In this document: positions 1 to 586 of the stretch, one piece after another | Numbering within the stretch: the stretch's first letter is position 1 | Layout of the letters: the number at the start of each line of letters is the position of its first letter | NCBI RefSeq assembly: GCF_003334255.1 | Contig: NZ_QOWU01000220.1 | From: Escherichia coli | GTDB taxonomy: Bacteria; Pseudomonadota; Gammaproteobacteria; Enterobacterales; Enterobacteriaceae | Length of the DNA: 586 nt | Strand: one strand, 5' to 3' | The notes under the pieces: generated by a model | Told to the model about the DNA's origin: nothing | Database searches by the model: none | The model's input: only the letters and a program-made list of their open reading frames with translations | Made by a program: the position numbers and the translations under genes

Positions 1-6
1 TCTTCG

Positions 7-46
7 TCAAAAACAACGGGGCGACCATCAAACAGCGTCGCCCCGT
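7..46 (-). terminator. Rho-independent (intrinsic) terminator for the minus-strand gene: perfect 10-bp GC-rich stem, 11-nt loop, followed by a U-tract
   Basis: Plus-strand 16-25 ACGGGGCGAC is the exact reverse complement of 37-46 GTCGCCCCGT (8 of 10 stem pairs are G:C), separated by 11 nt (26-36). On the minus strand the stem is immediately followed by TGTTTTTGA (plus coordinates 15..7). It lies about 51 nt downstream of the CDS stop at 98-100. On the plus strand the hairpin is followed by gttcatgctg, which is not U-rich, so it looks unidirectional. Confidence 0.55.
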
Positions 47-97
47 GTTCATGCTGCTCGAGTGCATCCAGCACTGCAGCACGGATATCAGTGTGTT

Positions 98-553
98 TCA
101 TCGTTTTATCGCAATCCTCAGTTGTTGTTTCAGCGCGGATGCCAGTTCTCCGGGCAGGCGTTCACGCCGGATACGGTCAACATTCTCATCAAACGCCTGT
201 TTCAGTGGGGCCGCCATCGGGATTTTCACCACATCAATAGGGTAACGGTTTTTCCCGGCCACACGCTGCATGACATGCCAGCGACCGTTTTTTAATCGCT
301 GAATGAATGCCCGCTGATACCGATGCTGACCGGCTTTAAGTATGCTGTTCGGACGACGGCCCAGCATCCTGATCCCCAGCTTAATCACTGGAAGATCACC
401 GCGGTTAACGATAATTTTTGCGTTCGGATTTCTGACCGTCGCCCTTTTCAGTCTGGACCGTTCCTTAACCAGTTTCCGGCGTACCTTTGTCTCCCGGGCA
501 ACCTGTGATGAAGACTGATTAATCGCCGTTGTGGCCACGCGGTTAATCGTCAT
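98..553 (-). CDS. Hypothetical highly basic (Arg/Lys-rich) protein, probable nucleic-acid-binding; 151 aa from ATG at 553 to TGA at 98-100; true start may lie upstream of the window
   Basis: Longest ORF in the window, covering about 78% of it. My codon-by-codon reverse-complement translation reproduces the supplied 151-aa protein. It has 24 Arg and 13 Lys versus 9 Asp/Glu, no Cys, and non-repetitive, protein-like composition. A strong hairpin plus U-tract lies about 50 nt downstream of the stop on the same strand. No family assigned; recognition is from memory only and no search was possible. No obvious Shine-Dalgarno sequence precedes the ATG at 551-553 (upstream minus-strand sequence ccggcggcttcagcaATG) and the frame is open through 554-586. 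Confidence 0.6.
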   Translation of the reverse strand: MTINRVATTAINQSSSQVARETKVRRKLVKERSRLKRATVRNPNAKIIVNRGDLPVIKLGIRMLGRRPNSILKAGQHRYQRAFIQRLKNGRWHVMQRVAGKNRYPIDVVKIPMAAPLKQAFDENVDRIRRERLPGELASALKQQLRIAIKR

Positions 554-586
554 TGCTGAAGCCGCCGGAATGGCGTTTTTACGAAC

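Follow-up and report, generated by a model that had tools for sequence, protein, structure and literature searches.

A frame of 456 nt on the minus strand of a 586 nt stretch of Escherichia coli DNA (the window, by which the whole stretch analysed is meant) is rich in arginine codons other than CGT and CGC, and the question that this locus raises is what such a bias says of the gene. An earlier note on the same DNA had read it as the mark of a horizontally acquired or weakly expressed gene. Here we identify the gene and its context, compare its arginine codons with those of the host and of the DNA around it, and weigh the ways in which the bias may have come about.

Gene content of the window

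The window holds one long frame, on the minus strand, from which a mechanical search takes an ORF at 98..553 (151 aa); the frame is still open at the right end of the window, position 586. The start of this ORF, the ATG at 551-553, was mistaken by the earlier note for the start of the gene. It is the codon of an internal methionine, Met27, which aligns with Met27 of lambda gpZ, and in an identical record (NZ_CP009072.1) the true ATG of the annotated CDS lies 45 nt past position 586, outside the window. The ORF corresponds to the last 151 residues of a lambda gpZ homologue of 177 aa, and the left part of the window holds the beginning of gene U.

98..586, minus strand: gene Z, 3' 489 nt (162 codons and stop), cut by the right end of the window
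551..553, minus strand: ATG of the internal Met27 of gpZ
1..101, minus strand: gene U (tail terminator), first 33 codons, translation MKHTDIRAAVLDALEQHEHGATLFDGRPVVFDE, cut by the left end of the window
L001:19956-20489 (NZ_CP009072.1): annotated CDS of Z, 534 nt, 177 aa
L001:20486-20881 (NZ_CP009072.1): annotated CDS of U

The Z protein matches the Pfam family Minor_tail_Z (PF06763) with an i-Evalue of 3.3e-57 (query 3-177, model 1-190 of 190) and PHROG 27, 'tail completion or Neck1', at 6.8e-62, and it aligns end to end with lambda gpZ (129/192 identical, 67%; E = 2e-81). The U protein matches PHROG 37, 'tail terminator', at 2e-63 and is 80% identical to lambda gpU; no NCBIfam model matched Z or U. 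Judged by these matches, the frame is the tail completion gene Z of a lambda-like prophage. In lambda, gpZ is the prototype tail completion protein, found in virions by mass spectrometry and unresolved in cryo-EM maps (PMC10721106; PMC11784142). Our search of PDB sequences returned no solved structure for any relative of gpZ, in agreement with its absence from the lambda maps (PMC10721106). Lambda virions from which Z has been deleted look normal but infect far less well, a defect that may stem from wrong insertion of the DNA end into the tail. For lambda only, gpZ is regarded as a low-abundance virion protein required for infectious tails (PMC10721106; PMC11784142). By likeness to lambda gpZ, the product of Z in this prophage would have the same virion-associated role in making infectious tails.

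Plus-strand ORFs in the window (45..245, 62..295 and others) were considered as genes and set aside as antisense shadows, lacking support, within two well-supported genes. Rfam gave no match in the window at E <= 1, the direct repeats of the window were only short two-copy families such as are typical of chance, and a scan of the window for promoters and terminators found no promoter. A terminator-like site at 563-575 on the plus strand (CGCCGGAATGGCG followed by TTTTT), antisense to Z, is weak and probably due to chance, one such site having been found against 0.7 expected in shuffled sequence.

The prophage, its locus and its distribution

The window occurs letter for letter (100% identity) in the chromosomes of E. 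coli ATCC 25922 (several assemblies), M16807 and M1/5, among others, which bears out the E. coli-like host that the earlier note had assumed; 193 records match it at 99% identity or more. In ATCC 25922 the window belongs to a prophage that sits between potB and potC, inside the potABCD operon (NZ_CP009072.1 3951140-4000684). In this strain 49,545 bp separate potB from potC, as against a 4-nt overlap of the two genes in K-12 MG1655; the site is therefore empty in K-12, and ATCC 25922 carries an insertion of 49.5 kb. The integrase gene directly adjoins potC and the tail-fibre end of the prophage adjoins potB. As a separate matter of annotation, potB is 36 nt longer in NZ_CP009072.1 than in K-12.

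The late region runs in the order small and large terminase subunits, W, portal, C, D, E, FI, FII, Z, U and V, followed by G, T, H, M, L, K, I, J, lom, stf and tfa. Upstream of it lie the lysis genes, rusA, a DUF968 gene and hokD, and farther upstream the replication and regulation genes, dicB, and the genes for exonuclease, excisionase and integrase. With integrase and excisionase at one end and complete packaging, head, tail and lysis modules, the element has the make-up of an integrated lambdoid prophage. The FII-Z-U-V order (L001 19587-21638) is the same in lambda and in nine further phages. The prophage carries no tRNA genes, so that the rare arginine codons of Z must be read by tRNAs of the host. 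Some Stx phages carry rare-codon tRNA genes of their own.

In a set of 5426 complete E. coli genomes, some match to the window occurs in 3713 and a copy covering at least 80% of it in 1561; window-like copies occur in one to seven places per genome, and about 70% of the genomes lack a near-full-length copy. The window DNA is also, over its full length, 95-96% identical to the sequenced lambdoid phages PhiR12_1 to PhiR12_5 and PhiR5_1, in which Z and U are annotated. The 96% identity to phages deposited as complete genomes is an indirect hint that the prophage may be inducible and yield viable phage. The foreign origin proposed in the earlier note is thus established independently of codon usage by the prophage context and the phage matches, that is, by the Pfam match, the lambda-type gene order, the integrase, the empty site in K-12 and the presence of the copy in 1561 of 5426 genomes; the arginine profile points the same way.

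Some genes of the prophage are pseudogenes; there is a frameshift in a DUF6645 gene and an internal stop in a DUF977 gene. Its cargo includes hokD, iraM, lom, dicB, a class I SAM-dependent methyltransferase gene adjoining the tail-fibre genes and a RelB/RelE-type toxin-antitoxin pair.

L001 1155-1310, 4548-4883, 31530-32129 and 35946-36614; L010 6173-6644 and 8197-8385: prophage cargo and broken genes

Arginine codons of Z

A recount of the ORF at 98..553 on the minus strand gave the same 24 arginine codons as the earlier hand count (CGT 6, CGC 5, CGG 6, AGG 3, AGA 2, CGA 2), with AGR and CGA codons together making up 7/24 (29%) and CGG 6/24 (25%). The full 177-aa Z has 26 (CGT 7, CGC 5, CGG 7, AGG 3, AGA 2, CGA 2), arginine amounting to 15% of this basic protein. 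The codons other than CGT and CGC (non-CGY) lie as follows in the ORF.

116-118, 368-370 and 443-445, minus strand: AGG codons of Z
431-433 and 452-454, minus strand: AGA codons of Z
296-298 and 101-103 (terminal), minus strand: CGA codons of Z
167-169, 311-313, 320-322, 458-460, 476-478 and 494-496, minus strand: the six CGG codons of the ORF

When aligned with lambda, the AGG codons at 116-118 and 443-445 are AGG there also, and the AGA codon at 452-454 is AGG. The AGA codon at 431-433 aligns with a lysine codon, AAA, and the CGA codon at 296-298 with a glutamine codon, CAA; we infer that at these two sites the change ran from lysine or glutamine to arginine. At residue 72 it is Z that has lysine (AAA), the lambda residue being arginine (AGA). 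In a protein rich in lysine and arginine, single-base exchanges of lysine or glutamine for arginine thus give rise directly to AGR and CGA codons.

Comparison with the host core genes

The host background was a sample of the genome, five 50-kb stretches of the ATCC 25922 chromosome, from which 176 ordinary chromosomal genes with 3464 arginine codons, delimited by their RefSeq coordinates, were taken as the core. Set aside from the core were 36 genes of a satellite-like element and of a T6SS/PTS island (the islands below). The prophage set consisted of 41 intact genes, and 31 genes of K-12 MG1655 for ribosomal proteins, elongation factors and rpoA served as the reference for high expression. 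The fractions of the six arginine codons in each set were as follows.

Ribosomal/EF genes: CGT.70, CGC.28, CGA.00, CGG.01, AGA.01, AGG.00; non-CGY 2.1%, AGR+CGA 1.4%
Core genes: CGT.38, CGC.45, CGA.05, CGG.09, AGA.02, AGG.015; non-CGY 17.6%, AGR+CGA 8.7%
Islands: CGT.24, CGC.36, CGA.06, CGG.16, AGA.12, AGG.07; non-CGY 40%, AGR+CGA 25%
Prophage: CGT.30, CGC.25, CGA.07, CGG.23, AGA.07, AGG.08; non-CGY 44.8%, AGR+CGA 22.1%
Z: CGT.27, CGC.19, CGA.08, CGG.27, AGA.08, AGG.12; non-CGY 53.8%, AGR+CGA 26.9%

The strong dominance of CGT and CGC in core genes, on which the earlier argument had relied, holds in the 176 sampled genes, in which only 17.6% of arginine codons are non-CGY. Tested against the core rates by the binomial distribution, the ORF has an excess both of non-CGY codons (13/24, P = 5.6e-5) and of AGR and CGA codons (7/24, P = 3.4e-3), the non-CGY excess of the full Z gene having P = 3e-5; a six-category G test of Z against the core profile, evaluated by Monte Carlo, gave P = 2.6e-4. 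When gene-to-gene overdispersion is allowed for by resampling each gene's own rate, the values become P ~0.018 for non-CGY and P ~0.07 for AGR and CGA codons. The non-CGY fraction of Z (54%) is matched by none of the 131 core genes with at least 10 arginine codons, their maximum being 50%, and its AGR+CGA fraction is attained by two of these 131 genes.

Within the prophage, Z is typical. It does not differ from the other 40 prophage genes (G test, P = 0.95), which without Z have 44% non-CGY arginine codons, and the likelihood ratio of the prophage profile over the core profile for Z, 10^4.4, lies above those of all 148 core genes. CGG alone accounts for 22.7% of arginine codons in the 41 prophage genes and for 9.0% in the host core genes.

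The deviation is confined to arginine

The earlier note had proposed a comparison of codon adaptation index (CAI) and GC3 with the host, and the two measures came out differently. With weights from the ribosomal set, the CAI of Z is 0.31, at the 2.3rd percentile of core genes and hence abnormal; without the arginine codons it is 0.424, at the 35th percentile. The low CAI is therefore due to the arginine codons alone, arginine being 15% of the protein. GC3, in contrast, is normal (0.54, 19th percentile of core genes), and so is GC (0.52, 35th percentile), so that the base composition of Z is not atypical. Other rare codons are present in small counts (ATA 3/16, GGG 3/8, TCA 3/8), and usage is not atypical across several amino acids; arginine alone deviates. 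The 'atypical codon usage' of Z is a matter of one amino acid and 26 codons, and the gene looks largely fitted to the composition of its host except at arginine. As measures for separating the prophage genes from the core genes of this sample, non-CGY arginine reached an AUC of 0.89 and CAI one of 0.77, and GC3 gave no separation (0.43).

The Z/U junction and a hairpin inside U

Genes Z and U overlap at a CGATGA motif, in which the last arginine codon of Z, its stop codon and the start codon of U share bases.

98..103, minus strand: CGATGA junction, made up of the terminal Arg codon CGA (101-103) and stop codon TGA (98-100) of Z and, overlapping both, the ATG (99-101) that starts U

The A that opens the U start codon also serves as the third base of the terminal arginine codon, so that arginine can be encoded there only by CGA or AGA. 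The same CGATGA is found in 11 of 12 gpZ/gpU pairs, including those of lambda, 21, N15, phi80 and Fels-1, and the conserved ATGA overlap in 11/12 lambdoid Z/U pairs suggests that U may be translationally coupled to Z. The AGG codon at 116-118, which forms part of a GAGGA, was weighed as a candidate Shine-Dalgarno sequence for U; at ~13-14 nt upstream, its distance from the ATG is greater than is usual.

Inside U there is a perfect 10-bp GC-rich inverted repeat, ACGGGGCGAC and GTCGCCCCGT (window 16-25 and 37-46, loop of 11 nt), placed 46 nt into U. The repeat as a whole, 16-46 on the minus strand, falls within U codons 19-29 and so inside the late operon. In the sense RNA of U the predicted hairpin has an energy of -25.5 kcal/mol (z = -3.65 against shuffled sequences) and is followed by UUGUUUUUGA, an arrangement that resembles a terminator. 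Lambda, PhiR12_1 and one Stx1 phage have the identical stem, and phage 21 has it with a single G-U change; the stem is missing from the diverged U genes of N15, mEp237, phi80, mEp043, Ayreon, Fels-1 and one Stx2 phage, in which the amino acids differ too. No covariation was seen in the stem among the lambdoid phages compared, which included nine diverged phages taken from GenBank, a scan of viral_contigs with gpU having yielded only proteins 100% identical to it.

Homologues of gpZ

Twelve gpZ genes were examined, namely Z of this prophage and those of lambda, 21, N15, mEp237, phi80, mEp043, Ayreon, Salmonella Fels-1, Stx1, Stx2 and PhiR12_1, the gpU proteins linked to them being 100% down to 52% identical to U here. 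In all 12 the non-CGY fraction of arginine codons is high, from 40 to 71%. The Z gene of phi80 (L095 120-704) stands out by its use of CGA for 8/24 arginines and an AGR+CGA fraction of 62%, far above the other homologues examined.

Like lambda Z, the gene described here lies between FII and U and shares with U an ATGA stop/start overlap. The arginine profiles of the two are also close, with 26 arginines here against 28 in lambda gpZ, 54% against 46% non-CGY and 27% against 25% AGR and CGA codons. The protein is 15 residues shorter than lambda gpZ, and protein and DNA alignments delimit a central variable segment.

317..373, minus strand: central variable segment of gpZ, residues 87-105, IRMLGRRPNSILKAGQHRY

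This segment is shorter than, and unrelated to, the very basic segment of lambda (residues 87-120). The 5' half of Z is too diverged from lambda for megablast, lambda-type matches covering query 274-586 only and starting just on the downstream side of the segment, which indicates a mosaic joint within Z of the kind usual among lambdoid phages. Phages PhiR12_1 to PhiR12_5 and PhiR5_1 resemble this prophage more closely: their Z is also of 177 aa with the short central segment and is annotated 'tail component protein Z'. These phages differ at ~4% of nucleotides, including synonymous arginine changes (AGG63 to CGG, CGT93 to CGC), and PhiR12_1 differs also by a non-synonymous one at residue 72 (Lys AAA here, Arg AGA there).

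Origin of the arginine profile

Our preferred reading, to which we give a probability of roughly 0.85, is that the gene is Z of a ~49.5-kb lambda-like prophage between potB and potC and that its arginine excess is the profile of the lambdoid late region, brought about by three causes together. The excess of CGG, AGA, AGG and CGA would then not be peculiar to Z but would be the standard profile of a lambda-like late region. The first cause, and one that the data on this locus demonstrate, is that Z was drawn from the mosaic lambdoid gene pool and not from the vertically inherited genome of the host. The second would be that translational selection for the codons preferred by the host acts only weakly on virion proteins made in few copies, and strongly just on those made in great abundance, such as the major capsid protein, as the contrast within the prophage and published analyses suggest. 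The third is local and accounts for a few of the rare codons: the overlap with the U start dictates the terminal CGA, and one AGA and one CGA stand where homologues have lysine AAA or glutamine CAA, a single mutation away.

The contrast within the prophage is between the genes for the major capsid protein E and for lom, in which non-CGY codons make up 1/22 and 1/12 of arginine codons, and Z (14/26), portal (22/45), C (16/28) and K (14/21); V, U and D, with only two to seven arginine codons each, are too small for the comparison. Lucks et al. (2008) found that elevated CAI in phages occurs mainly in head genes (PMC2266997). The prophage shows a gradient of the same kind, in that E uses the arginine codons preferred by the host and the low-copy Z, portal and K do not, although our comparison, unlike that of Lucks et al. 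(2008; PMC2266997), concerns only the arginine codons of one prophage and takes the abundance of the proteins as presumed. The explanation of the arginine contrast by copy number is thus a correlative one. Weak expression, which the earlier note had offered as an alternative to foreign origin, is in this sense partly true within the phage, as the 1/22 of E illustrates; a native, weakly expressed host gene is excluded by the context.

It is unlikely that the rare arginine codons are instead a selected device that limits the translation of Z through the scarce tRNAs for AGA/AGG and CGG, the aim being few gpZ molecules per tail or a late-gene output tied to the physiology of the host. In all 12 of the diverged gpZ genes the non-CGY fraction has stayed high, lambda has two of the AGG codons and the terminal CGA at the same positions, and the prophage, being without tRNA genes, depends on host tRNAs; moreover, it has been proposed that in E. 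coli genes rich in rare codons are regulated through argU and other rare tRNAs (PMC2408971). However, the profile is common to most genes of the prophage whatever their function and so is not specific to Z, most of the rare codons are not conserved in position relative to lambda, CGG, CGT and AGG interchanging freely, and the overlap with the U start accounts for the terminal CGA. Somewhat more doubtful still is the suggestion that the arginine profile of gpZ is kept by selection as a translational throttle, perhaps with the hairpin in U setting the Z:U:V ratios. Were it true, gpZ would be held to a few copies per tail and late-gene output would be coupled to the rare arginine tRNAs, and the Z:U:V ratios would be set within one polycistronic late transcript.

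That the pattern is a sampling fluctuation in 24-26 codons and carries no information is highly improbable. The sample is small, and the AGR and CGA excess taken alone has P ~0.07 with overdispersion; but the non-CGY excess has P = 5.6e-5 by the binomial and 0.018 once overdispersion is allowed for, none of 131 core genes attains the value of Z, and the same excess is present in the remaining 11 homologues and in the pooled prophage genes. Least credible is a native, vertically inherited, weakly expressed host gene, for although some core genes of low CAI approach Z (caiF, yhjV and ysaA with 50% non-CGY, rppH with 37% AGR and CGA codons) and GC3 and the non-arginine codons of Z are host-like, the gene lies within a complete lambdoid prophage with an integrase that interrupts potABCD, about 70% of complete E. 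coli genomes lack a full-length copy whereas others carry up to seven, and lambdoid phages sequenced and deposited in the GenBank phage collection match the sequence at 96% identity.

Gene Z and this type of prophage are already known and well documented, and so is the biased codon usage of late genes in lambdoid phages. The bearing of the present case is on the reading of sequence, since a hand count of the arginine codons in a 456-nt frame sufficed to flag prophage DNA correctly, and arginine codon choice may be a practical aid in the triage of E. coli-like DNA when nothing but sequence is at hand (AUC 0.89 in sample). Codon usage reportedly served for the detection of foreign ('horizontally transferred') E. 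coli genes in the work of Medigue and colleagues in 1991 and of Lawrence and Ochman in 1997-98. Z resembles that codon-atypical class in its low CAI and its excess of AGA, AGG, CGA and CGG over the core, and differs from it in having no anomaly of GC or GC3 and host-like codons for the other amino acids.

A minor observation concerns the genes set aside from the host core. A ~11-kb integrative element adjoins a tRNA-Pro gene (L003 6836-17525; NZ_CP009072.1 106836-117525) and carries genes for an integrase, Icd-like proteins, a primase, SSB, a major capsid protein, a head decoration protein and a small terminase subunit, without tail genes; from this gene content it looks like a putative capsid-forming phage satellite. 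Pooled with those of the T6SS/PTS island, its genes have 40% non-CGY arginine codons.
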